The position numbers and the translations under genes are program-made. Below, piece by piece: positions 4,955 through 43,369 of a stretch of 44,899 nt of DNA. Below the pieces are notes generated by a model that had not been told where the DNA came from, searched no databases, and was given only the letters and a program-made list of their open reading frames with translations. Within the stretch, counting starts at the first letter, position 1; the number at the start of each line of letters is the position of its first letter. Location of the stretch: the sequence record NC_012223.2; one strand, 5' to 3'. This DNA comes from Escherichia phage SSL-2009a.

Positions 4955-5066
4955 CCCGTCTGCAGACCCCGACGAAGATTTGATGATTGACGTTAAAAAT
5001 ATGGAATGCGGGGCGAAGCTGAGGGCGCAGGTGTTGGAGTTGCAGCAAATAATTAAGGGGCCGTAA
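4836..5066 (+). CDS. o-spanin (Rz1-like outer membrane lipoprotein)
   Basis: 76 aa; signal peptide with lipobox LSAC-G, proline-rich mature part; SD AGAGG 9 nt before ATG 4836; overlaps the 3' part of the i-spanin gene in another frame (overlapped Rz/Rz1 architecture). Confidence 0.6.
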   Translation: MLRALTALIVVLTLSACGSSSVPLMPLTESALRPPCKFDNPSADPDEDLMIDVKNMECGAKLRAQVLELQQIIKGP

Positions 5067-5081
5067 TGGCCCCTTTTCGTT
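5057..5081 (+). terminator. rho-independent terminator (GGGGCC-gtaat-GGCCCC + TTTT)
   Basis: Perfect 6-bp GC stem, 5-nt loop, T-run; sits at the end of the o-spanin gene and at the convergent end of minus-strand gene 5080-5844. Confidence 0.6.
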
Positions 5082-6226: not shown

Positions 6227-6250
6227 TGCAACCAATATAGCGCAACCAAT
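6227..6250 (-). promoter_or_regulatory. paired ATTGGTTGC half-sites (minus-strand orientation) upstream of gene 5884-6198
   Basis: tgcaaccaat (6227-6236) and gcaaccaat (6242-6250) on + strand; TATATT between them on the minus strand; member of the recurrent dyad motif family. Confidence 0.45.
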
Positions 6251-8269: not shown

Positions 8270-8297
8270 GGGGCGGGCTTATGCCCGCCTTTTTTAT
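8270..8297 (+). terminator. rho-independent terminator after capsid gene
   Basis: GGCGGGC-ttat-GCCCGCC followed by TTTTTTAT. Confidence 0.65.
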
Positions 8298-8310
8298 AGG
8301 AGTGAATGAA

Positions 8311-11073: not shown

Positions 11074-11103
11074 TTTGGTCGCTTAAATAGCGGGTGTTAA
11101 TAT

Positions 11104-11128
11104 GGGGCCAGTACGGCCCCTTTTTTTA
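11104..11128 (+). terminator. rho-independent terminator after major tail gene
   Basis: GGGGCC-agtac-GGCCCC followed by TTTTTTT. Confidence 0.65.
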
Positions 11129-11143
11129 TTGGAGAATACCACA

Positions 11144-11506
11144 ATGGCTAAAGCACCACTCTTTACACTCGACCCTAAACCGACTTTTAAGCTACCGATT
11201 GAGATCCCGCGCCCCGGAGAAAACGAACCTGGCAAAATGACGTTTACCGTGCGCCACCGTCCGATCGACGAGTTTTCGCAGACCATGCAGGATACTGAGC
11301 GCAAGTTGTCAGAATATGACGACAATGACCCGGACGGCTTTAATGTTATGGTCGAGGCCATCATGCACGTCGCAGAAGGCTGGAATCTGCCGGACGAATT
11401 TAACGCGGAGAACGTCCGCCGCTTGGTGGTCAACTACCCGCGCGCGTTCGGCGTGTTCCATACGTCGTACTATCTCGAACTGATGGGATTGCGTGAAAAA
11501 AACTAA
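11144..11506 (+). CDS. tail assembly chaperone (gpG-like)
   Basis: 120 aa from ATG 11144 (SD GGAGA); acidic; ends just after the slippery heptamer A_AAA_AAC (11497-11503). Confidence 0.7.
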   Translation: MAKAPLFTLDPKPTFKLPIEIPRPGENEPGKMTFTVRHRPIDEFSQTMQDTERKLSEYDDNDPDGFNVMVEAIMHVAEGWNLPDEFNAENVRRLVVNYPRAFGVFHTSYYLELMGLREKN

Positions 11507-11820
11507 TTGAGGCGGCGCGACGCTTTTATGGCCCGCCGCCACCCTCCGAAGATTTAGCCGCGAGTTTATGGGGCGCGGCCCCTGAAGATGTTTGCCCACC
11601 AGTTGCGCTATGGCCCGACAACGCTAAGGTAGTCGCCGTCTTCACGGATTGCTCCACGCAATGGCGCACCGGATTCGGCGGCGCATACGGCATCGACTAC
11701 GGCGTACTGGAATGGCTTTTTAAGATGCACGGCATCGAAAACGCGCAACGTGCGTTTAAAGATATCAAGCTAATGGAACGAGTTGCGCTGGATGAAATGG
11801 CGCGGCAGAACCACGCATAA
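11144..11820 (+). CDS. tail assembly chaperone frameshift product (gpG-T-like, via -1 frameshift at 11497-11503)
   Basis: The -1 frame is open from the slippery site A_AAA_AAC to TAA 11818-11820 (about 105 extra codons, translated by hand with no stops); canonical position between major tail and tape measure genes. Confidence 0.6.
11497..11503 (+). other. programmed -1 ribosomal frameshift slippery heptamer A_AAA_AAC
   Basis: X_XXY_YYZ heptamer in the zero frame of the gpG-like gene, two codons before its stop. Confidence 0.6.
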
Positions 11821-12145
11821 CGGAGCGGGACAGGCGGGACGTCCCGTTTTGTCCCGCCACCACTAAACCGCATATATACTCACTTTCATTGCATAAATTA
11901 AAAGCGGGACAGGTGCGCTGTCCCGATCTGTCCCACCCCCAAAATGTGAATATCTATTCGATTTTCGTGCATAAAACAAACGGGACAAAAAGCGGGACAG
12001 AATTGGGCGGGACAAAGCGGGACAGCACCCCTGTCCCCGCCAGTGCTGCCGCGGGTTTTAGCCGATCGGGACAGGCGGGACAAAGCCAAGTCTTTCAGAC
12101 TAGACGGGGGTCAATGGCCCCCCTCGTCTGAGACTGAATAAGGTT
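11821..12145. repeat. iteron/palindrome-rich element A (GCGGGACA units, GGGACAG-N5-CTGTCCC palindromes, terminal GC hairpin)
   Basis: At least 9 direct and 5 inverted copies of GCGGGACA-like units; about 150 bp (11978-12137) nearly identical to 39700-39860; hairpin 12101-12130. Confidence 0.7.
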
Positions 12146-12204
12146 TGTTTTAAATTCGCTGATACAATGACCGACGGCAACTGCATAAAAAGGGGGACTG
12201 CATA

Positions 12205-14844
12205 ATGGCAGATCAGGCAGCGGGCATCACGCTCAAGGCGGACGTCGCGCAAATTAAAACGGCGAATACTGTGCTGGACACATTTGCGCAGAAATCCGAG
12301 AACACAGAACAGAAAGTAAAAAAATTAAACGACACCCTCGGCAAGTCGAAAAAGGTTACTGGCGACGCCGCGGGCGGAATGGAAAAGTTAGCGACTGAAT
12401 CGCAGCGCGCCGCCGACGGCATGACGAAACAGGAGCGACTAGCCAGCCGATTAGGCATGTCGACCAAAAACCTGGGATTCGCATCGCGGAACGCCGCATT
12501 CCAGTTACAGGATATCGCGGTTACGCTTGAGATGGGTATGCCGGTGCACCGCGTTATGCTTCAGCAGCTACCGCAGCTTACTGGGGCGTTTGGCGGACTG
12601 GGAAACACGCTGCGTTATGTCGTCGGCACACTCGGCCCGTTAGGGATCGGCATCGCTGCATTAACGGCAACGCTCGGCGTAGGGGTGGCAATTACGACCC
12701 GCGCAGAGAACCAGGTGGCGGCGCTTAATAAGACGCTGGCGCTGTCCGGTAATATTTCAGGCCTGACAGCTAACCAGATCCTTGTGCTGTCCGAGAACGC
12801 CGAGCGCATGGGCGGGTCATTTCGCAAGACGCGTGACACAATCCAGGCGCTGGCGGCGGCGGGTGTGAAAGCGGGTGGTGACTTTGGCGCATTGGCTAAG
12901 GTAGTGAATGACTTTGCGAAGGTGTCCAGCCAGCCGATCGAGGATGTGGTAGCGGCGGTGGCGAAGCTGTCAACCGACCCGGTAGGCGGCTTGCGCGCAC
13001 TGGCGGATAAGTATCACGTCGTAAACGAAGCGCAGATCCAGCAGGTACAGTCGCTGGTTGATGCGGGTCGTGAGACAGACGCAGTTGCGTTGGCTAACAA
13101 AACAGCCGCTGCGTCGTTCACCAGCATGACCAATGAGATCAAGGCGAACATGGGTACGCTTGAGCGGTCTATGAACGTCGTCACTTCGGCAGCTAAATCA
13201 ATGTGGGACGCTATCCTGGATGTGGGTCGCGCGCAGTCCTCCAATGAGTCTGAGATGAAAGCGCGCGAATCACTCCAGCGCATGACCACGGCGTACTATG
13301 CCGAGATGAAAGCGGTAAACGCAGCCGGTGGGGTAATGACTGAAGCGCAGAAAGCGCGTATTAACATGCTTTATAGCGAACTGGTCGCCCAGGAGAAAGT
13401 AGTAGCGTCGCTCACCCTGCGTAACCGTGCGGAGCGAGACAACGCCCGATCCGCAGACGAATCCGCAAAGGCGAACGAGGAGGCTAACCGCACCGCCCGC
13501 GACCGCGCTGCGTTCGAGAAGGAGTACGCAACCAACGCGAAGAAGCGCGCAGACGAGATCGCCCGCCTCAATTTGCTGAATAAGCGCGGCGTTATTGACG
13601 AGAAAGAGCTTGCTGAGGCGGTTAAGCAGGTAAACGAGCGTTACAAAGACCCGGCCCCGAAGAAGGCCGCGGCTGTTCGCGTGGATGCCGGTATGAAAAT
13701 GCTGGAAGTCGCACGGAGCGAACTGGCCCAGCTTCGAGAATCCGGCAAGCAGATCGAAGCCAACGCGTCTACGCAGACCCGCACGCAACGCGCGCAAGCG
13801 GCCTTAAACAAGCTGATCGCCGACAATGAGCAGTTAATTGCTGCGAGCAAAGAAAGAGCGCTAACGGCAGCAGAAAAGCAGCAGATGGTCGAATTCGGAC
13901 GCGTGAAGGAAGTGCGCGAGCAGATCGTCGAAGAAGCCAAATTGCTGGACGCGAAAGAGAAGCAGGTTAAGGCGCACGCGCAGATCGATGCCTTCGTTAA
14001 GAACCAGAACGCCGAACTAAAAGCCACCGCCGCGGGCTATGCGCTTTCCACTCGCGAAGCGGCAAACCTGCGCGAAGAATTGCAGTTAATCGACCGCCTG
14101 AAGCGTGTAGGCGCTAACGATACCGATATTGACAAGGCGGTGTCTAAGCTGCGGGAAGTGCAGGAGGCGCAGACCGGCGCTAACGCCTCGCTATGGGATG
14201 GATTCAGTCGCGGGCTTAAGGATAGCGTGGATGAAATGGGTAACGGATATACGCAGATGGCGTCGCTTACGAAATTCACATTCAGCGCTATGCAAGACAC
14301 GATGAACGAGTTTTTCGAGACTGGCAAGATTAACGCGAAGGATATGGTCAAATCCATCCTGAGCGAGTTAATCAAGCTGGCTACCTCGCAGGCGTTCAAG
14401 TCCATCGTTGGCGCTTTCGGTGGCGGCGGCAAAAACGGATTGTTCGGCGCTATCTTCTCGGGCCTCACTAAGAATGCGGACGGCGGAGCGTACGCAGGAG
14501 GCAATCTCGCGGCCTATTCGGGTAAGGTGGTAAGCCAGCCTACCTTTTTCAGTTATGGCGTCCAGGCGTTCGCTAAGGGCGCAGGATTGATGGGTGAGGC
14601 TGGACCCGAGGCCATCATGCCACTGAAGCGCGGGCCGGACGGGAAACTTGGCGTTGCCGCGTCGGGTGCGGGCGGTGGTATGGTCGTGACGACTAACGTT
14701 TACACTGGGGCCGGTAAAACAGACACCAGTGTGAGCGGCCCAGACCCCCGTACAGCGCAGGCGTTCGGCAAGCAAATCACCGAGGCGGTGAAGGCCGAGA
14801 TCGTGAAAGCGACGAAACCGGGTGGTGTACTTTACAAACGATGA
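12205..14844 (+). CDS. tail tape measure protein
   Basis: 879 aa, Ala/Gln/Lys-rich coiled-coil composition, glycine-rich C-terminal part; SD AGGGGGA; located after the G/G-T chaperone. Confidence 0.85.
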   Translation: MADQAAGITLKADVAQIKTANTVLDTFAQKSENTEQKVKKLNDTLGKSKKVTGDAAGGMEKLATESQRAADGMTKQERLASRLGMSTKNLGFASRNAAFQLQDIAVTLEMGMPVHRVMLQQLPQLTGAFGGLGNTLRYVVGTLGPLGIGIAALTATLGVGVAITTRAENQVAALNKTLALSGNISGLTANQILVLSENAERMGGSFRKTRDTIQALAAAGVKAGGDFGALAKVVNDFAKVSSQPIEDVVAAVAKLSTDPVGGLRALADKYHVVNEAQIQQVQSLVDAGRETDAVALANKTAAASFTSMTNEIKANMGTLERSMNVVTSAAKSMWDAILDVGRAQSSNESEMKARESLQRMTTAYYAEMKAVNAAGGVMTEAQKARINMLYSELVAQEKVVASLTLRNRAERDNARSADESAKANEEANRTARDRAAFEKEYATNAKKRADEIARLNLLNKRGVIDEKELAEAVKQVNERYKDPAPKKAAAVRVDAGMKMLEVARSELAQLRESGKQIEANASTQTRTQRAQAALNKLIADNEQLIAASKERALTAAEKQQMVEFGRVKEVREQIVEEAKLLDAKEKQVKAHAQIDAFVKNQNAELKATAAGYALSTREAANLREELQLIDRLKRVGANDTDIDKAVSKLREVQEAQTGANASLWDGFSRGLKDSVDEMGNGYTQMASLTKFTFSAMQDTMNEFFETGKINAKDMVKSILSELIKLATSQAFKSIVGAFGGGGKNGLFGAIFSGLTKNADGGAYAGGNLAAYSGKVVSQPTFFSYGVQAFAKGAGLMGEAGPEAIMPLKRGPDGKLGVAASGAGGGMVVTTNVYTGAGKTDTSVSGPDPRTAQAFGKQITEAVKAEIVKATKPGGVLYKR

Positions 14845-22361: not shown

Positions 22362-23978
22362 ATGGCAGCGGGTACACTATCCGTAACGAATAACAGCAAG
22401 GCGGTTGTCGGGGTAGGCACGACGTTTACCGCGTTTAAAGCTGGCGACTTCTTAACGCTGGTGGTAGGACAAGTCCCCTACACCGTGGCAATCGCGTCCA
22501 TTGAAAGCGCAACCGCGCTCACGCTGGTGTTACCGTTCGACGGACCCACGGCCACCGGCCTTGCCTGGGATGGCGTTGCGCGCGATACCATGTCACTGGC
22601 GACGATGGGCGTAACAGTCCAGGCACAGAAAGCATTGCGCTTGATGATTGCGGATGAAAACAACTGGCGTGCAATCTTCGGCGACGCTGAAGAGATCACC
22701 GTTACGCTGCCCAACGGGCAAGTTATGCAGGGTATGTCATGGGGCTACCTGTCGCAATTGATGAAGCAGATCGACCCCGTTGAAATGCGCAACCTACAAC
22801 AACAAGCCGCCGCGTCTGAAGCAGCAGCGCAAGGATTTCGCAATGAGGCCGAAGGCTTCAAGAACGATGCCAATACCATCAAGACGCAGACCAACCAAAT
22901 CAAGGCCGATACGCAGGCGGTCCACGACGCCACCAACACCATCAAGACGCAGACGAATCAGATTAAGGCCGATACGCAAGCCATCAAGGACCAGACGAAC
23001 CAGATCAAGACGGATACCGGCATTATTCGGGACCAAGCCAATACGGCGAAGACTGACGCGCAAGCCGCCAGAGATGCCGCGAAAGGGTATCGGGATGAAG
23101 CCGAAGACTTCAAAAACGCGGTCAACCCTACGCAATTCATGAAGACGTCTCAGAACCTGGCAGACGTAGCAAATCAATCAGCGGCACGCTCTAATCTTGG
23201 TCTTGGGTCGGTAGCTACGGAGAACACCGTTCCGATCGAGAAAGGAGGAACCGCCGCGACAACGGCAGCGGCGGCACGCTCTAATTTCGGGTTGGGCGAA
23301 AACAATAACGTAAAACTTGGTACGTTGCGCCTAAACGGTGGTGAATCGCTAGTCTTCAATGATGTCGAAAGAAACGGCTTAGCACTATCAAACGTCTCAT
23401 ATGGGATAGATAGTTGGGTAGGCTTCACCATGCACAAATGGTACGCCGACTGGACCCGCGCAGGAATTGTGCGTGCGGGGGACACCCACCTGTCAGACTA
23501 CCGCGTCCACGTGTGGAAAGATGGTATGACTGAATCGCTATTCCGCTTCCTACCGGACGGCAGGCTTATTAGTGGTAACAGCGGCAACCCGTCGGTTAAC
23601 GAGTTCCAGAAAGCGGCGCTATCGGACCGCGACCTTAAAAAAGAAATCAAATACACGGACGGCGAGGAAAGCTACAACCGCGTTCGCCAGTGGCTTCCGG
23701 CGATGTTCAAGTATAAGGAGTCGGACGTACAGCGATACGGCCTTATCGCGCAGGATCTGGCAAGGATTGACCCGGAATACGTGCATTTGCTGCCGGGTTA
23801 CGCCATTTATGAGGACGTCAAGGGGGTCGACGAGGAAGGGAATGAGGTTGTAGTCGACCGCAAGGAGATCGGGTATACCGACGATGTGCTGTCTTTGGAT
23901 AGTAACGTGCTGTTGATGGACCTGTGTGCCGCCTTCGTCCACCTGTTGCATAAAGTGGAGAAGCTGGAAGGTAAATAA
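22362..23978 (+). CDS. tail fiber protein with internal 21-residue repeats and C-terminal chaperone-like domain
   Basis: 538 aa from ATG 22362 (SD GAGGA); tandem TIKTQTNQIKADTQA repeats; C-terminal region (DRDLKKEIKYTDGEESY...GLIAQDLARIDPEYV) resembles the intramolecular chaperone of S74-type fibers (by recollection). Confidence 0.7.
   Translation: MAAGTLSVTNNSKAVVGVGTTFTAFKAGDFLTLVVGQVPYTVAIASIESATALTLVLPFDGPTATGLAWDGVARDTMSLATMGVTVQAQKALRLMIADENNWRAIFGDAEEITVTLPNGQVMQGMSWGYLSQLMKQIDPVEMRNLQQQAAASEAAAQGFRNEAEGFKNDANTIKTQTNQIKADTQAVHDATNTIKTQTNQIKADTQAIKDQTNQIKTDTGIIRDQANTAKTDAQAARDAAKGYRDEAEDFKNAVNPTQFMKTSQNLADVANQSAARSNLGLGSVATENTVPIEKGGTAATTAAAARSNFGLGENNNVKLGTLRLNGGESLVFNDVERNGLALSNVSYGIDSWVGFTMHKWYADWTRAGIVRAGDTHLSDYRVHVWKDGMTESLFRFLPDGRLISGNSGNPSVNEFQKAALSDRDLKKEIKYTDGEESYNRVRQWLPAMFKYKESDVQRYGLIAQDLARIDPEYVHLLPGYAIYEDVKGVDEEGNEVVVDRKEIGYTDDVLSLDSNVLLMDLCAAFVHLLHKVEKLEGK
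22836..23120 (+). repeat. tandem 63-bp coding repeats within the tail fiber gene
   Basis: accatcaagacgcagac...aaggccgatacgca repeated at 22875 and 22938 with a third degenerate copy; flanked by repeated FKN(D/A) segments. Confidence 0.6.
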
Positions 23979-23984
23979 GGAGAA

Positions 23985-24008
23985 GGGGCCGTGCGGCCCC
24001 TTTTTTAG
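23985..24008 (+). terminator. rho-independent terminator after tail fiber gene
   Basis: GGGGCC-gtgc-GGCCCC followed by TTTTTT; marks the convergent junction with the minus-strand operon. Confidence 0.7.
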
Positions 24009-24580
24009 TTTGAGTTTTCCCAGTCCATTTTGCGCCGCACCAGCGGGCTTTCGTAGTATTCTTTACCGTCCACTTCCACTAAAGGCCAATCGTTAACAAT
24101 CACGTATGGCTCCGCGACATCTTCAATCACGCCGCGCGCGCTATGTTGTCCGAACGATACGCCCACCAGGATAACACCGGCAACGCGACGGGTAAGGTAT
24201 TCGCGAGCGCAACGTGCCTCAACCAGTCCGCGACGGATGCCGCTGGTAGCTTTGACTTCGTAGGTCCAGACGGCATCAATCATATGTTCGCGGAAGTCGG
24301 GACCGGATTTTACCTTGCGCTTGCCAACCATGATAATATCGCCGCGGTCGATAGTGTTAGCGCTAAACAGGCCGGTACGCATTAGCAAACCTTGCGGGAT
24401 ACAGCTACGCCCGCCCGCCTGCCCTTCGAGGTACATGCCTGCAAACATTTCGCCCAGCACACCGACGAGTCTGCTTTGCTTGCACGCGTCAGACTTGTAT
24501 CGCCACTGTTCAAACTCGATGCTTGCAATCATCGCCGCCAGGTGGAATTGTTTACCGGTTATTTCATATTCGCCGTACAT
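24005..24580 (-). CDS. hypothetical protein, possible PD-(D/E)xK-type nuclease
   Basis: 191 aa, SD GAGGGA; D...EVK arrangement (GDIIMVG ... TYEVKA) weakly suggestive of a restriction-endonuclease-like fold; last gene of the leftward operon. Confidence 0.45.
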   Translation of the reverse strand: MYGEYEITGKQFHLAAMIASIEFEQWRYKSDACKQSRLVGVLGEMFAGMYLEGQAGGRSCIPQGLLMRTGLFSANTIDRGDIIMVGKRKVKSGPDFREHMIDAVWTYEVKATSGIRRGLVEARCAREYLTRRVAGVILVGVSFGQHSARGVIEDVAEPYVIVNDWPLVEVDGKEYYESPLVRRKMDWENSN

Positions 24581-25184: not shown

Positions 25185-25206
25185 TGCAACCAACCTATTG
25201 GTTGCA
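25185..25206. promoter_or_regulatory. 22-bp perfect palindrome TGCAACCAA-ccta-TTGGTTGCA (operator-like)
   Basis: Seen directly; overlaps the stop codon of the HAD gene and lies just 5' of gene 24622-25173; TATAGT follows on the minus strand. Confidence 0.55.
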
Positions 25207-27087: not shown

Positions 27088-27121
27088 AATATAATGCAAC
27101 CAATATGATTATGCAACCAAT
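27088..27121 (-). promoter_or_regulatory. candidate promoter with two direct ATTGGTTGCAT sites (-35 TTGCAT, 17 nt, -10 TATATT)
   Basis: atgcaaccaat at 27094-27104 and 27111-27121 (+ strand); on the minus strand the first copy supplies TTGCAT, the second fills the spacer, TATATT at 27093-27088. Confidence 0.5.
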
Positions 27122-33025: not shown

Positions 33026-33805
33026 TTAACGGCGGCGACGTTTACGTGGCGCTTCGTCTTCGTCGTCGTCCTCATCTTCGTCATCGCGTGGCTTACGACG
33101 TTTACGAGGTTTTTCATCTTCGTCGTCTTCGTCATCGCGGCGCTTGGACTTTTTGGACTTGCGCGGCTTGTCGTCTTCGTCATCGTCATCACGACGTTTT
33201 GACTTTTTGGACTTGCGCGGGCTTTCATCTTCGTCATCGTTGTCCAGGTCTTCGTCTGAGCACGAAGATCCGCCACCGCCGAAGGCTTCGCCGTCATCAC
33301 GGAAGCGCAGACCCAAAAGACCAGCACCGAGTCCCTTGCCGTTGGTATTGTTCCACGCCCAGATATCGAGGGACACGTTGCAATAACAACCGGAGTAGAT
33401 CTCCTGGCCTTCGATCTCGTCGCCTTCTACGGTCAGACCTTGTTCAGTCTGCTTCTCGCCGAGTGACGTTTGAATGATCGGCTGCTTGAACGATTTGGCG
33501 TTGATGTACAACATGCCTTCGAATTCTTCGGTTACTTCGTCGCGCTCGTCACCGTCGCGAACTGCGCATTCCTTAGAATCCTGGGCGTAGTGGCGGTCCA
33601 TCCACTTATCGGCATTCTTCTCGGATTTCAGCTTGTCGGTGAGCACTGCGCGCGCTGCCGCTTCCACTTTGTCCACCTGCGGATCTTCTTTATCCAGAAG
33701 AATCACGGCACGGTATGCCGGTTTTTGTCCATCCTGTTTAGGGGTATCACGTTCCCAAATTTTCAGGAAACATACGCGCACTTTTTTCAGGTTGACTTTA
33801 GCCAT
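33026..33805 (-). CDS. single-stranded DNA-binding protein candidate (T7 gp2.5-like) with repetitive mixed-charge C-terminal tail
   Basis: 259 aa from ATG 33805 (SD AGGAA); N-terminus MAKVNLKKVRVCF resembles gp2.5-like SSBs (by recollection); C-terminal 70 residues are tandem D/E-rich and KPRKSKKSKRR-type repeats. Confidence 0.5.
   Translation of the reverse strand: MAKVNLKKVRVCFLKIWERDTPKQDGQKPAYRAVILLDKEDPQVDKVEAAARAVLTDKLKSEKNADKWMDRHYAQDSKECAVRDGDERDEVTEEFEGMLYINAKSFKQPIIQTSLGEKQTEQGLTVEGDEIEGQEIYSGCYCNVSLDIWAWNNTNGKGLGAGLLGLRFRDDGEAFGGGGSSCSDEDLDNDDEDESPRKSKKSKRRDDDDEDDKPRKSKKSKRRDDEDDEDEKPRKRRKPRDDEDEDDDEDEAPRKRRRR
33030..33245 (-). repeat. tandem coding repeats (about 55-bp period) in the SSB C-terminal tail
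   Basis: ttggactttttggacttgcgcgg repeated at 33144-33166 and 33198-33220 with flanking gtc/ttc triplet runs. Confidence 0.55.
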
Positions 33806-33861: not shown

Positions 33862-33886
33862 TTGGTTGCCAATCTACTTGGTTGCG
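33862..33886 (+). promoter_or_regulatory. two direct TTGGTTGC half-sites (plus-strand orientation) between minus-strand genes
   Basis: cttggttgcc (33861-33870) and cttggttgcg (33877-33886), spaced 16 bp; orientation opposite to the flanking genes. Confidence 0.35.
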
Positions 33887-36049: not shown

Positions 36050-36592
36050 TTAGTCTTCCAGTTCGAAATAAGTTTCGACGATTTCTTTTAGCTCGGTGTG
36101 GAAGTCTTCGACGTCGTCGTCTTCCAGTTTAGCGATTGATTTGATCTCGAACGATTCCAGCAGGTCGTCGAATTCGTCGTTCGCATCATCATCATCGCCG
36201 CCTGCAATAATAGCGGCATACTGTTTGATTTCGTCGCGCATCTCTGCCAGCGGGTCGGCTTCTTTCTTACCTTTGCCTTTCGCTGGTGCTTTTTTACCCT
36301 TCGCCGGTTTTTCGTCTTCGGCTTCATCATCATCGTCGTCATCCTCTACGACTTCTTTTTTGGCCTTTCCTTTAGACTTGGTTTCTTTTGCCGCGCCTTT
36401 TTTCGCCTTGGGCGTATCTTCGACTTCGTCCTGATCGTCGTCTTCGACTTCAGTCTCCGGCTTTGCCTTGCCTTTCTTAGCGGTGCCGTTTGCTTTTGGG
36501 CCTACGGCAGCGCCCACAGTTTCATAATGTTTAGCGATGGTTTCCAGTGCTACTACGCCGCGAGTGATCAGGTTTACGATTTGCTCAAACAT
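36050..36592 (-). CDS. highly charged acidic/lysine-rich protein (first gene of leftward early operon)
   Basis: 180 aa from ATG 36592 (SD GGAG 7 nt upstream; the six-frame ORF extends to 36820 but the upstream part lacks a start context); alternating poly-D/E and K-rich blocks. Confidence 0.5.
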   Translation of the reverse strand: MFEQIVNLITRGVVALETIAKHYETVGAAVGPKANGTAKKGKAKPETEVEDDDQDEVEDTPKAKKGAAKETKSKGKAKKEVVEDDDDDDEAEDEKPAKGKKAPAKGKGKKEADPLAEMRDEIKQYAAIIAGGDDDDANDEFDDLLESFEIKSIAKLEDDDVEDFHTELKEIVETYFELED

Positions 36593-36992: not shown

Positions 36993-37322
36993 ATGAATAT
37001 CAACGACGCAATCGAAATGTTAACTAAGACTGTTTGCAGTGAGACTAGCCGGTCGTGGGCTTATACCGATGCCGTTGGGGCGGTGCTATTTGAGGTCGAG
37101 CGCCTGCGCAGTGTAGAAAAAGAATTACGCGCCAGGCTGGAATTGCTCAACGGTACAGCGGCGAGCAAGCTGCAGAAGCACAATGAAGAAATGGAAGAAT
37201 ATAAAAAACAGGTTATCAGTTTGCGCGCCGAGGGCAAATCCTGGGCGATGATTGCCGAGTTGACCGGAATTAATCAGAGCACAGTGCGCTCCTGGGTACG
37301 CAATAATAAAACTTCTAAGTAA
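36993..37322 (+). CDS. helix-turn-helix DNA-binding protein (putative transcriptional regulator)
   Basis: 109 aa, SD GGAGA; C-terminal HTH-like segment SWAMIAELTGINQSTVRSWV. Confidence 0.55.
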   Translation: MNINDAIEMLTKTVCSETSRSWAYTDAVGAVLFEVERLRSVEKELRARLELLNGTAASKLQKHNEEMEEYKKQVISLRAEGKSWAMIAELTGINQSTVRSWVRNNKTSK

Positions 37323-37332
37323 GGTCACGGCA

Positions 37333-39597
37333 ATGAGCTTAATTAAATTCGCTGTAACAAGACCCGCTAAAAAAGGCGAAAAAGCCAGGGCGGAAAACTT
37401 CCAGATGACTACCGAAGAGTTTTTCGAATTTATCAATGATGCGAAAGAAATCTCCTCGGTGCATATCAACAAAACGGAAGATAAAGCCGAGTATGCACGC
37501 CGCAAGCGTAAGGCCGACGGCATCGTGGCGTATACCAGTGACGGATTGCGTCGCAAGACCAGTGCGGTGGACCGCTCGATCCTGTTCTTCGATATTGACC
37601 GTACTGACACCCGCACCCTACGCCGCTGCCGTAAGGCGTTCACCGACGCGGGACTGGAGCACGTCTTCCACACCACAACCGGCGACCGTCACCCACTGAA
37701 AGGTGGAACGCGTTGCGCTCGCTTCCTTGTGTTGACCGACAAGCCTGTACCGGCTGAAGACCTGGGCCGTGTCCAGTATGCGCTATTACACCAACTGGGC
37801 CTGTCAGACGTGGACTTCGACGACTGCACGAAAGACACAAACCGCCTTATGTACCTGCCACACCAGCAGTCTGTTATTAAGTGCCACTATGGCAAGCGCG
37901 CCCGCGTCCGTCGTCTGCTCCGCCAGGCTGACAAGCTGGGAGTTGAGAAAGAGGAAGTCCGCCGCGAACTGACCCAGGGCGACGACGCAGTGGCAGACGG
38001 CATTCTGGACTGGTGCTTCCAGGCAGGATTCGAGGAGTTATCTTCCGGTCGCGGTTATGAAGTGCCGTGCCCGAACGAACATCTGCACAGCGGCGAAGGG
38101 TCAACGGCTATCATGGTCAAGGATGGCGAGATCCGTTTCAAGTGTATGCACACCGGCAACGAGTGTTGCTCGGAACTGAATAGACACCAGCACCTGGCGC
38201 TACGTCTTATAGGTATCCCGGACCACCTGAACGTCGAGCCACACAATATGTCCCGTAAGCAAATCGCCGCCATCCTGCCGGGGTTGGACGACGAGGAGGT
38301 CGAATCCTTATACGAACATATTGTTGATGCGGTTGGTGACGGCGAAGAATACGGCGTGTGCACCGATGCGGATCTGGATAACGAGCCGGTCGCACTATTC
38401 AGTAAGCACGACCCGATTATCGAGGGGTTGATTAACTTTAAATCGACCTGGTATCTCGCCGGTGAGTCGAACATTGGTAAGTCTTTCTATGTGCTGGGGC
38501 AAATGGCGTCAGTATCTGCCGGTATTCCGTTTGGGGGGGCGAAGGTCGTCCAGTGCCACAACTTCTATTTCGATGCGGAAGGTGGCGAAGCCTCAAATCA
38601 GCGTAAAGAAGCATTGCAGATTAAATACGAGCACGACCTGGACAAGCTGCACATTATCGATCTGCAATCACGCGGCTGGGATATCACCAGCAAATCCGGC
38701 TTGCGCGAAGTTATCAGCTTCATCAACCGCACCGCTAACGGCGAACCAGTTGGCCTGGTGGCGTTCGACTCACTCAACCAGACTGTTGCGCTGCGGTCCG
38801 CCGATGCTAAACCGTTTGACGAGAACAACGCCAGCGATATGGGTGAAGTGGTCAAAGCGCTGAAAGCCATTGCGGAAAATACAGGTGGCAGTGCTGGCGT
38901 CATCCACCACCCGGCGAAAGGTGCAAACGGCAGCAGAACCCCACGCGGATCCGGTGCGCTGCATGGTGCTGTCGATTCAGCTTTCTTCCTGGAACAGCCA
39001 GACGACAACCAGCCAGGCCAATTGAACCTGTATCACGAAAAGTCACGTAACGGCATCAAGCAAGCGCCGCGTGGCTTCGTCCTGCTCAAGTGCAAGGTGA
39101 AGGTAGATCTCCGCAAGTCGGAAGCGTTCGCGTCGCACCAGTCCACCAGCACCGGGCCGGACTTCGGCGACGTCGTTGCCGGTTGGGACGTCAAACCAAT
39201 TGCGTCCACGCCACGCGACGAGACTCTATACCTCGTACCGGTCGCCCTGGCACCGTTCGCTATAGAACAGGCGAAGGCCGCAGGGAAAGCCGCAGTTAAG
39301 GAAGAGAACACCGCAGGACCGCGCAACGAAAAAGAGAAAGTGCTTTATGCGGCCCTGGAAAAACTGATGGAAGATAACCCGGACCATACTGGATTCAGTA
39401 AATCGGCAATCGTCCGCCAGGCGGGACTCGCGAAGGGGGGCACTTCGACGAAGGCAATCGACGATATGGTCGAGCGCGGCGTGATTGGTTTCTATACAGA
39501 TCCGCACACCGGGGCCATCTATGGGTCGTCGAATTTAGTTATCAAATCGGATATCCCCATTACGCTTTCGGCGACCGATGACGACCTGAAAGATTAA
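37333..39597 (+). CDS. DNA primase/helicase-type replication protein (P-loop ATPase with zinc-binding region)
   Basis: 754 aa; Cys/His cluster CPNEHLHSGEG...FKCMHTGNECC; Walker A GESNIGKS and Walker B-like LVAFDSLNQ; immediately followed by iteron locus B. Confidence 0.7.
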   Translation: MSLIKFAVTRPAKKGEKARAENFQMTTEEFFEFINDAKEISSVHINKTEDKAEYARRKRKADGIVAYTSDGLRRKTSAVDRSILFFDIDRTDTRTLRRCRKAFTDAGLEHVFHTTTGDRHPLKGGTRCARFLVLTDKPVPAEDLGRVQYALLHQLGLSDVDFDDCTKDTNRLMYLPHQQSVIKCHYGKRARVRRLLRQADKLGVEKEEVRRELTQGDDAVADGILDWCFQAGFEELSSGRGYEVPCPNEHLHSGEGSTAIMVKDGEIRFKCMHTGNECCSELNRHQHLALRLIGIPDHLNVEPHNMSRKQIAAILPGLDDEEVESLYEHIVDAVGDGEEYGVCTDADLDNEPVALFSKHDPIIEGLINFKSTWYLAGESNIGKSFYVLGQMASVSAGIPFGGAKVVQCHNFYFDAEGGEASNQRKEALQIKYEHDLDKLHIIDLQSRGWDITSKSGLREVISFINRTANGEPVGLVAFDSLNQTVALRSADAKPFDENNASDMGEVVKALKAIAENTGGSAGVIHHPAKGANGSRTPRGSGALHGAVDSAFFLEQPDDNQPGQLNLYHEKSRNGIKQAPRGFVLLKCKVKVDLRKSEAFASHQSTSTGPDFGDVVAGWDVKPIASTPRDETLYLVPVALAPFAIEQAKAAGKAAVKEENTAGPRNEKEKVLYAALEKLMEDNPDHTGFSKSAIVRQAGLAKGGTSTKAIDDMVERGVIGFYTDPHTGAIYGSSNLVIKSDIPITLSATDDDLKD

Positions 39598-39607
39598 ATT
39601 TTGCGCG

Positions 39608-39653
39608 CATTGGTTGCCATTTTGTGTGCTTTTAGCTGGTCGCATTGGTTGCC
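39608..39653 (+). promoter_or_regulatory. two direct CATTGGTTGCC motifs downstream of the primase gene
   Basis: Copies at 39608-39618 and 39643-39653 (35-bp spacing), directly upstream of iteron locus B. Confidence 0.4.
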
Positions 39654-39699
39654 GTGTAGTGTAAATATAGTGCATAGTTATGCAATAAAACTGCATAAA

Positions 39700-39860
39700 G
39701 TAAGCGGGACAAAAAGCGGGACAAACCAGGGGCGGGACAAAGCGGGACAGCACCCCTGTCCCACCCCGGATGACGCGGCCTGGCGGGGAGCGGGACAGGC
39801 GGGACAACTCCCAGTCTTTCAGACTAGACGGGGGTCAGCGGCCCCCCTCGTCTGAGACTG
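39700..39860. repeat. iteron/palindrome-rich element B (second copy of the 150-bp GCGGGACA element; putative origin-associated)
   Basis: Six direct GCGGGACA units, one GGGACAG-cacccc-CTGTCCC palindrome, and the same terminal hairpin as locus A; near-identical to 11978-12137. Confidence 0.7.
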
Positions 39861-40014
39861 CATAAAATCCGGGATTGCAAAATACACGGCAGCATGTTGC
39901 GGATTGCGGTCGTCGCTGAACTAGGCAACCAATGCGAGTTGCAGAACGGTGGGTGGGAAATGCAGTTTGCAGTCACAGCAGATAGCGATCAACTTTTTCA
40001 TGCGCATGATTAAT

Positions 40015-40055
40015 ATTGGTTGCATTCGTGCCAGCACCCTGCTAGATTGGTTGCA
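40015..40055 (+). promoter_or_regulatory. candidate promoter/operator (ATTGGTTGCAT as -35, TAGATT -10, second ATTGGTTGCA over -10/+1)
   Basis: TTGCAT 40020-40025, 17 nt, TAGATT 40043-40048; second motif copy 40046-40055; SD GAGGA 40065-40069; ATG 40077. Confidence 0.5.
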
Positions 40056-40076: not shown

Positions 40077-40367
40077 ATGAAAAAATTAATCTGGAATTAC
40101 GCAATGGCCCTGGCGAAGCTGGTTGAAGTTAAACACACACACGGCAGCGCACCCGAGGCGCGCCAGGTAGCTCCGACCTGGTATGCGATCATGAACGCGA
40201 CCGCGGACCTGAAAGACCCAGAACCGCTGCGCATGGCTATCCGGGTCTACGCGATGGCATTTGCCCGTGAGCGCATGGCGTATCGCTTCGGGGTCGGTGA
40301 GACGGCAGCGGCAAACGTCGCCCGGATTGCAGCCCAACGTGAGCTATTCGCCCAGCTTGCAAAATAA
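40077..40367 (+). CDS. hypothetical early protein
   Basis: 96 aa, SD GAGGA 7 nt upstream; first gene after the origin-like region. Confidence 0.5.
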   Translation: MKKLIWNYAMALAKLVEVKHTHGSAPEARQVAPTWYAIMNATADLKDPEPLRMAIRVYAMAFARERMAYRFGVGETAAANVARIAAQRELFAQLAK

Positions 40368-40376
40368 GGGGCCAAA

Positions 40377-40646
40377 ATGGACCGCAGACGCGCGAAACAG
40401 CTTTCGTGGCATATTCCACTGCATTGCGTACGAATGTGGGCTAAGAATGCGTCTGAGGGCGATTCTGTGTTCTGGAGCTATCGCGACGACGTTAAGCCGT
40501 TGACGCAGACTCGCTACTTGCACCAGTTCGCCGCGCAACATGATTTCTATGTGCGGACCTCCTTGCAACCAATGGGGATCCGTATTACATTACGCCGGAA
40601 GCCCGCAGTCGAGCGGGTAGGCAAACACTGGAGACTGAGCAAATGA
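40377..40646 (+). CDS. hypothetical early protein
   Basis: 89 aa, SD AAGGGG; basic (Arg/His-rich). Confidence 0.45.
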   Translation: MDRRRAKQLSWHIPLHCVRMWAKNASEGDSVFWSYRDDVKPLTQTRYLHQFAAQHDFYVRTSLQPMGIRITLRRKPAVERVGKHWRLSK

Positions 40647-40786
40647 CACCAGCACTAATGGCGGGATTCTCGCAGAAGTTTATTTCTGTTGATGCCTGCA
40701 TAGCAGATTATGAGATGGACGGCATCGCTACTGTGTGCGATGGCGACACGAAAACTGCCGACGAGATTGAGGAGACAGAACAATGA
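40643..40786 (+). CDS. hypothetical small acidic protein (47 aa)
   Basis: ATGA overlaps with both neighbours, SD GGAGA 8 nt upstream; found by manual translation (below ORF-track cut-off). Confidence 0.4.
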   Translation: MTPALMAGFSQKFISVDACIADYEMDGIATVCDGDTKTADEIEETEQ

Positions 40787-43331: not shown

Positions 43332-43369
43332 TTGCAACCAACATAGGGGCCATACTGCAACCAACCAAT
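43332..43369. promoter_or_regulatory. two TGCAACCAA motif copies (reverse orientation)
   Basis: ttgcaaccaa 43332-43341 and tgcaaccaaccaat 43356-43369, just upstream of the micro-ORF SD. Confidence 0.4.

Follow-up and report, generated by a model that had tools for sequence, protein, structure and literature searches.

Escherichia phage SSL-2009a was analyzed as a single window of 44,899 nucleotides (nt) (NC_012223.2), which holds a repeat-rich, non-coding island, here called region A, on the plus strand at 11821-12204. Analysis of open reading frames (ORFs) and Pfam domains showed that region A fills the whole interval between the stop codon at 11820 of a tail assembly chaperone pair (Phage_TAC_4 at 11102-11506, followed by a DUF1799 part, G/T) and the ATG at 12205 of the gene for a tape measure protein of 879 amino acids (aa). 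A second and shorter array, region B (39598-39870), follows the gene for a helicase-primase. An earlier note on this DNA had placed a 325-bp element of iterons and palindromes at 11821-12145 between the two tail genes; its position and its start are confirmed by the Pfam and ORF data, but the non-coding island continues beyond the proposed end to 12204. The window is collinear with whole Dhillonvirus genomes, e.g. EC115, and therefore represents the near-complete genome of a virulent siphovirus of Escherichia coli of ~45 kb. Dhillonviruses are common virulent coliphages, present in the BASEL collection and among several isolates for phage therapy or biocontrol.

Region A is built of four clusters of CGGGAC units, in the order A1 (+ + - -), AT spacer, A2 (+ - -), AT spacer, A3 (+ + + + -), A4 (+ +), hairpin, TGATACAAT, ribosome-binding site and ATG. 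Cluster A1 (11825-11858), whose four unit cores are invariant in 15 genomes, is an inverted copy of the core of A3 and is 84% complementary to 12006-12037. Cluster A2 (11904-11934) consists of a GGGACAG-N5-CTGTCCC palindrome and one more inverted unit, while A3 (11980-12041, plus strand), with four direct units and one inverted unit, and A4 (12066-12084, plus strand), with two direct units 9 bp apart, are both common to region B. Spacer 1 (11860-11905, 63-77% AT) and spacer 2 (11935-11980, 67-73% AT) carry one TGCATAAA box each, at 11890-11897 and 11968-11975, and the segment common to both regions begins within spacer 2. The AT content of these spacers and of the corresponding segment of region B (39655-39703) is 63-77%, compared with a genome average of 45%.

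The clusters are followed on the plus strand by a GC-rich bulged hairpin with a near-invariant stem and a variable loop; the limits first given for it, 12101-12130, had to be widened to 12089-12135. The final 60 bp of the island contain the ribosome-binding site of the tape measure gene and, at 12160-12168 on the plus strand, an extended -10-like element, TGATACAAT, which was read from the sequence and from an alignment in which all 15 genomes keep it. From this candidate promoter the tape measure gene and the tail genes downstream could be transcribed; a consensus promoter scan missed it because it has no -35 element. As single-stranded DNA, region A is predicted to fold with -67.5 kcal/mol, compared with -47.5 +/- 4.2 kcal/mol for shuffled sequences (z = -4.7), A1 being paired with A3.

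Region B contains only the part of the module that corresponds to A3, A4 and the hairpin, preceded by one AT-rich stretch, and its single-stranded fold is less extreme (z = -2.4). The AT-rich segment (39655-39703, ~73% AT) has a TGCATAAA box at 39692-39699, and the iterons (39704-39808, plus strand) comprise four direct units and one inverted unit at 39706-39762 and two direct units at 39792-39806. The hairpin at 39813-39859, also on the plus strand, has a stem identical to that of region A, the loops being AGC in region B and AAT in region A. Region A exceeds region B twofold in the number of iterons, contains two AT-rich spacers and is strongly dyad-symmetric. The likeness of the two regions had been recognized before as about 150 bp nearly identical to 39700-39860; the likeness holds, but the alignment extends over ~200 bp (11946-12141 against 39670-39865) at 81% identity, and it includes an identical 33-mer (12005-12037 and 39730-39762).

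The repeat units are strongly enriched. The octamer GCGGGACA has 18 matches in the window, compared with 2.03 +/- 1.33 expected and a maximum of 6 in dinucleotide-preserving shuffles, and 13 of the 18 are located in region A (seven, at 11825-12082) or region B (six, at 39704-39806). Of the 74 units with the core GGGAC/GTCCC in the whole window, region A holds 14 and region B holds 7. Palindromes of the GGGACAG-N5-CTGTCCC type lie at 11906-11924, 12019-12037 and 39744-39762, and five of the six matches to TGCATAAA (1.65 expected) fall in one of the two regions. These results agree with what the earlier note had reported as direct and inverted units, palindromes and boxes flanking both copies, and the comparison of octamer counts with shuffled sequence, which it had proposed as a test, came out in favor of enrichment. 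Self-comparison of the genome and the unit count revealed no further copies of the module. No DnaA box (TTATCCACA, up to one mismatch) was found in region A or B, which excludes a DnaA-dependent origin.

In a BLAST search of 11700-12300 against GenBank phages, region A was present in all 157 matching records, nearly all of them Escherichia or Shigella Dhillonvirus; 149 cover at least 80% of the query, and the identity to phage JL1 is 98%. Both regions were present in these 157 records and in 14 IMG/VR contigs, so that the conservation in related phages proposed earlier as a test was found at both positions across Dhillonvirus. Alignment of 15 copies of region A and 16 copies of region B showed invariant CGGGAC cores and hairpin stems together with variable spacers and loops. 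As judged from these alignments, the repeat units are under purifying selection, and the feature is genuine and under functional constraint. In IMG/VR, the left arm of the hairpin (22 nt) was found in only 15 contigs, all Dhillonvirus, 13 of them with exactly two copies.

Identities were 0.895 among copies of region A, 0.874 among copies of region B, and 0.829 between the two regions of one genome. Copies of A thus group with A and copies of B with B, and therefore the duplication is older than the radiation of Dhillonvirus and both copies have been maintained. Concerted evolution of the two regions was considered and rejected, since a sign of conversion was seen in phage Ioannina only. In that phage the sequence closest to region B is not another copy of B but region A of the same genome (0.857), which suggests gene conversion between the two in this lineage. 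Variants of the A4 cluster and its region B counterpart (B2) with a unit spacing of 8 or 9 bp occur at both positions across genomes.

The junction between the chaperone and tape measure genes was surveyed in loci retrieved by the DUF1799 chaperone domain. In 14 Dhillonvirus contigs the two genes were 357-394 bp apart, and the gap held 13-16 GGGAC units; in 29 relatives whose chaperones are 37-45% identical the gap was -38 to +51 bp, with no units. Comparison of these loci indicates that region A is a Dhillonvirus-specific insertion into an otherwise tight junction, and therefore region B occupies the ancestral origin position and region A is the genus-specific duplicate. Region A was probably enlarged after the duplication by the inverted clusters and AT-rich spacers. 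Its position within the late tail operon, pointed out before as unusual, is indeed so among relatives, although a precedent exists in oriR of phage SPP1 (PMC6316719). The core of region B was not found in any of 5,426 complete E. coli genomes, and thus there is no resident decoy or satellite copy in them.

The record of Sodalis phage SO-1 (NC_013600), a member of the same genus, already annotates the same pair of repeats: one repeat_region, called 'region A', is located at 11214-11597, where it separates gp16 from the tape measure gene, and the other, 'region B', follows the helicase-primase at 40178-40657. The first part of the /note describes direct, inverted and palindromic repeats and a likeness to region B. 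This record is an annotation only, without the link to a winged helix, the co-variation or the distribution described here. No published analysis of the two regions or of Dhillonvirus replication origins was found in the literature searched; the Dhillonvirus genome papers that were checked mention neither repeats nor origins, and searching the literature for GCGGGACA returned unrelated primer matches only.

The gene preceding region B (37333-39597, plus strand) encodes a protein of 754 aa, which matches the PHROG family 'replicative helicase-primase' and Pfam AAA_25. AlphaFold2 (AF2) models and fold searches divided it into an AEP-like N-terminus, a RepA/RecA-like AAA_25 ATPase and a C-terminal winged helix (~aa 661-740, nt 39313-39552). 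The full-length model has a mean pLDDT of 67, with a confident N-terminal domain that resembles the AEP PrimPol of cyanophage S-2L (6zp9, E 1.3e-4), and the central ATPase core resembles RecA, RAD51 and KaiC. The modelled fold thus includes a winged helix, the kind of sequence-specific DNA-binding domain expected of an initiator, and from the model and the sequence comparisons the helicase-primase is proposed to be the iteron-binding initiator. The distance from the helicase-primase stop codon to region B is 91-161 bp in 18 Dhillonvirus copies, and in SSL-2009a the iterons of region B begin 107 bp past the stop. Region B thus adjoins the candidate initiator gene, whereas region A lies 27.7 kb away, or 17.2 kb on a circular map.

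A scan of IMG/VR for GCGGGACANNGCGGGACA retrieved many contigs of 42-73% GC without DNA similarity to the window. Contigs with at least four octamers within 400 bp were regarded as array-bearing, and 57 were obtained. In 31 of them tblastn identified an AAA_25 homologue (24-31% identical), and in these the first GCGGGACA lies at or within ~100 bp past the stop of the homologue or overlaps its 3' end, array and gene having the same orientation. When all ORFs located up to 2.5 kb from the arrays were clustered without bias, a helicase or helicase-primase family was recovered in 48 of the 57 loci and in the window, and no other family was ubiquitous. In other array-bearing loci, primase-helicases of Prim-Pol + AAA_25, Toprim + D5_N, or zinc-ribbon + Toprim type end at the array. 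A C-terminal domain of ~100 aa is common to the other GCGGGACA-linked helicases and follows the pattern GPRLT...L.AL...WR..FY...TKRKAFqRa...L..G.I. Neither this domain nor the Dhillonvirus C-terminal domain is covered by a Pfam family; tblastn of one such GCGGGACA-linked domain against named phages gave no match, and a homologue search with the C-terminal fragment alone gave two.

Several observations were made in the array-bearing loci beside these. The presence of GCGGGACA next to Prim-Pol + AAA_25, Toprim + D5_N + DUF5906 and zinc-ribbon + Toprim architectures (contigs L012, L014, L026 and L098) suggests a shuffled origin-specificity module. In several unrelated phages, inverted GGGACA triplets flank an alternating purine-pyrimidine tract of CG/CA repeats (20-45 bp) instead of an AT-rich spacer (L014:4180-4215, L026:5090-5140, L098:8560-8620, L074:5330-5350 and L127:12585-12615), and in these putative origins the tract may serve instead as a site of unwinding or one prone to Z-DNA. 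A scan of bacterial genomes yielded mostly chance matches; real arrays were present in 8 of 120 loci, with the C-terminal domain adjoining in six, five of them from Alphaproteobacteria.

Furthermore, in syntenic relatives the repeat unit varies together with the helicase-primase. ENA contig L127, with a helicase-primase 68% identical to that of SSL-2009a, has GCGGGACA units and the same hairpin after the gene. At 49% identity (L128) the gene is followed by at least six TTGCGAGT/ACTCGCAA units, at 48% (L129) by at least ten TTGCGA units, and at 44% (Cornellvirus VSiA) by five GGGGGAGA units at 37073-37156, with no second copy; GGGGGAGA is the most clustered 8-mer in the VSiA genome. The four iteron types therefore track identity classes of the helicase-primase, GCGGGACA spanning 68-100% identity. 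A protein alignment showed that the start of the predicted recognition helix also differs by iteron group: GG(T/S)-(S/T/N)T(K/T)AI is found with GCGGGACA, SGN-YKKVL or SAH-YGKTL with TTGCGA, and GGD-RYKIL with GGGGGAGA.

We consider it probable (about 0.65) that regions A and B are a duplicated iteron-type replication-origin module, which a self-loading helicase-primase would recognize through its winged helix. The module would consist of tandem and inverted CGGGAC(A) units, spaced about one helical turn apart, beside AT-rich DNA and a GC-rich hairpin. The C-terminal winged helix would read the CGGGAC units, the helicase-primase would assemble on the array and melt the adjoining AT-rich DNA, and it would then load itself as the replicative helicase and prime, as Rep of the SaPIs and the alpha protein of phage P4 do. 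We infer binding, melting and initiation from the anatomy, conservation, gene linkage, co-variation and protein fold described above. Region B would be the ancestral origin, and region A an old duplicate, enlarged to 14 units in four clusters, whose dyad symmetry would suit the head-to-head loading of two complexes and which may have arrived with, or gained later, a promoter of its own for the tail genes downstream.

The suggestion that region A is a second cis-acting replication site gains support from the array located 3' of the helicase-primase gene, from the co-variation of the units and from the predicted winged helix. Copy A may fire as an origin, assist replication as an auxiliary site comparable to crr of P4, or, bound by the initiator as oriR of SPP1 is, serve as a fork barrier. 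By analogy with oriR, region A might also act as a genus-specific checkpoint within the tail operon, loaded with the initiator, where helicase-primase bound to the 14 units stalls the first forks, triggers the switch to concatemers and gates read-through from the chaperone to the tape measure gene; expression of the tail genes from the promoter in the island would in this way be coupled to replication; we regard this proposal as speculative and rather improbable. A linked possibility is that the GCGGGACA array is an interchangeable origin-specificity cassette, exchanged among at least three primase-helicase architectures in phages of 42-73% GC.

Several results weigh against the assignment of the two regions as origins read by the helicase-primase. 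GC skew follows the coding strand only and gives no origin signal. Region A is missing outside the genus, in all 29 relatives, and therefore the replication system in general does not need it. In Kagunavirus and Jerseyvirus, whose helicase-primases are 28-35% identical, the gene is followed by a terminator and a convergent gene and not by an array. The Dhillonvirus winged helix and the C-terminal domain of the other GCGGGACA-linked helicases are weakly similar (hhalign probability 51%), and a hidden Markov model (HMM) of the latter domain does not detect the Dhillonvirus C-terminus; such divergent domains beside one and the same octamer are a puzzle for recognition by the winged helix. Two further points, the conserved promoter-like TGATACAAT just upstream of the tape measure gene and the small gene upstream of the helicase-primase, which switches family together with the iteron in the syntenic series, also favor other explanations and are discussed with them, as is a hairpin stem in which none of 16 pairs showed a compensatory change.

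The small gene (36993-37322, plus strand) encodes a helix-turn-helix (HTH) protein of 109 aa, similar to sigma-70 region 4, and is located directly upstream of the helicase-primase gene, in one operon. It switches from the sigma-70 region 4-like type to HTH_3 in those lineages that also have a different iteron. As a candidate binder it is thus confounded with the helicase-primase, and the arrays could be bound by this protein, as a separate origin-binding or regulatory factor, instead of by the helicase-primase. However, no homologue of it was found beside GCGGGACA arrays outside Dhillonvirus, and the ORF clustering of the 57 loci and the window revealed no small protein common to them. A small regulator would also have a more natural target in TTGGTTGC (GCAACCAA), a box present in many intergenic regions including that upstream of the HTH gene, and we consider binding of the arrays by the HTH protein unlikely. 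TTGGTTGC has 21 matches, mostly paired and intergenic, compared with 2.1 expected (6228-6249, 25186-25205, 27096-27120, 30054, 33862-33885, 36797, 39610-39652, 39925, 40016-40054 and 43334-43364), and it is located on both sides of region B and upstream of the operon of the HTH and helicase-primase genes. A phage regulator probably uses it as its operator or promoter box; this regulator may be the 109-aa HTH protein, which is more likely linked to these genome-wide boxes than to the arrays. Analogous but different boxes occur in relatives, TGTTGGC in VSiA and GGCCAAC in L129.

The island could also be a transcription-control module, in which the hairpin ends the transcript of the chaperone genes in region A and of the helicase-primase in region B, a protein bound to the repeats serves as a roadblock or activator, and the downstream promoter-like element restarts transcription, of the tape measure and tail genes in A and of the next operon in B. 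In line with this, both regions are situated between transcription units and on the coding strand. A terminator is annotated here in the records of HK578, at the first palindrome, and PTXU06, oriR of SPP1 is likewise flanked by transcriptional signals (PMC6316719), and TGATACAAT fits this explanation well. The note that had taken the repeats for an origin or protein-binding array rather than a promoter is thus upheld by comparative genomics as regards the array, but the island also holds a promoter-like element. On the other hand, the hairpins at 12089-12135 and 39813-39859 are without a T-run within 2 nt and are not canonical intrinsic terminators, and when both regions were scanned for consensus promoters and terminators, the matches did not exceed chance. 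Other intergenic and promoter regions lack the units and carry TTGGTTGC boxes instead; arrays follow or overlap the 3' ends of helicase genes in unrelated phages and co-vary with the helicase-primase, and relatives express the chaperone and tape measure genes without any gap. These results make transcription control as the principal function a minor alternative. The hairpin, which is conserved in sense orientation in both copies with a variable loop, could also belong to a structured non-coding RNA encoded twice, or process or stabilize a transcript. The covariation test is uninformative here because the stem never varies, but the RNA fold z-scores of the two hairpins (-1.7 and -2.0), an Rfam search at gathering and permissive thresholds with no family at gathering score (only weak miRNA precursor matches, 28 bits against a gathering score of 105), a scan for tRNA and tmRNA with nothing meaningful, and the conserved repeats themselves, units of 5-8 nt in both orientations as is typical of DNA-binding sites, render an RNA function very improbable. 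It is equally hard to regard region A as a selfish or neutral duplication, such as a MITE-like insertion or a recombination relic, without function at this position. It is indeed a lineage-specific insertion into an otherwise tight junction, but it was kept in 157 of 157 records and 14 contigs with invariant unit cores and diverging spacers, A and B evolve as separate orthologous lineages, and there are no extra copies in the genome, none in E. coli genomes and no hairpin outside the genus.

A pac or partition site was also considered for the arrays and rejected, because they are not near the terminase and no ParB-like gene is present.

Other repeats and features of the window were recorded. 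A family of terminator-like sites with a GC hairpin and a T-run (GGGGCCnnnnGGCCCCTTTTTT) occurs at boundaries of gene blocks (11105-11134, 23985-24014, 8273-8302 and 5046-5073) and is distinct from the hairpin of regions A and B. Degenerate coding repeats of the GACGAAGA type in minus-strand genes, at 33036-33250 (the C-terminal part of an Enc34-type ssDNA-binding protein) and 36294-36450 (an ORF of 256 aa), are acidic low-complexity tails with no relation to the iterons. A 63-bp tandem duplication with 79% identity is located at 22870-22995 within a tail fibre-like ORF of 547 aa. Among the database records, 'Acinetobacter phage NJ01' (OQ221563.1) is 98% identical to SSL-2009a across the query and one record labelled 'Campylobacter' matches too; probably the host labels of these two records are wrong or the samples were contaminated.

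The assignment of two cis-acting sites to one initiator through its winged helix can be tested, as it makes predictions at the level of single units, and the natural specificity variants GCGGGACA, TTGCGAGT, TTGCGA and GGGGGAGA could be used for swaps. The 384-bp island is a candidate element for phage engineering, and plasmids bearing the origin might serve as decoys, in analogy to phage-encoded resistance derived from origins. Should region A act like oriR of SPP1, Dhillonvirus would offer a second, independent example of an origin copy in the late region that controls the mode of replication; if not, the module would be an ordinary iteron origin that was duplicated. The helicase-primase assignment, the series of co-varying iterons and the recognition of region A as a genus-specific insertion are new, while the repeat pair was already known from the SO-1 record and the two-origin layout from other phages.

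The arrangement proposed here has partial counterparts in several known replication systems. The alpha protein of P4 is a multifunctional primase-helicase with a C-terminal winged-helix origin binder, and its octamer iteron occurs in both orientations in ori and crr, both of which act in cis. One primase-helicase with a winged helix and two separated clusters of iterons are common to P4 and SSL-2009a, and the parallel with ori and crr drawn earlier is sound as an analogy. It does not extend to homology, because the domain content differs: P4 alpha has Toprim and a D5-type SF3 helicase and uses TGTTCACC iterons, whereas the Dhillonvirus protein matches AAA_25 only in Pfam and has an AEP PrimPol-like N-terminus and a RepA-like, RecA/RAD51/KaiC-like core. 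Iterons, an AT-rich segment, hairpin priming signals and a RepA helicase are found together at oriV of plasmid RSF1010, which differs in its use of three separate proteins, RepA, RepB and RepC.

In pRN1, the prim-pol/helicase/winged-helix protein ORF904 has its origin in a conserved stem-loop just downstream of the gene (PMC4234260), and thus a stem-loop follows a prim-pol/helicase gene as it does here, but pRN1 has no iterons. Rep of the SaPIs is a helicase, sometimes fused to a primase, whose C-terminal winged helix reads iterons of 5-6 nt, and the ori, directly downstream of rep, has 6-12 iterons in opposite orientations on both sides of an AT-rich region (PMC9371898). Dhillonvirus shares with the SaPI Rep-ori system the winged helix, the iterons downstream of the gene and the AT-rich DNA. 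SaPI Rep, however, is an MCM-like AAA+ helicase and not a RepA/RecA-like AAA_25 protein, the SaPIs have one ori, and there is no sequence homology.

A counterpart of region A in its setting is oriR of SPP1, a virulent pac siphovirus of 44 kb with two similar origins, each with repeats and an AT-rich unwinding element (PMC6316719, PMC3485210). One SPP1 origin is located at the initiator gene, whereas oriR interrupts the late morphogenesis genes; the initiator binds both, and oriR has been proposed to stall forks and to trigger the switch from theta to sigma replication (PMC6316719, PMC3485210). SPP1 uses a separate origin binder (gp38), loader (gp39) and DnaB-type helicase (gp40), its oriL is inside gene 38, and the sequences are unrelated; what the two phages have in common is the two-site layout, in which one copy interrupts the late genes.

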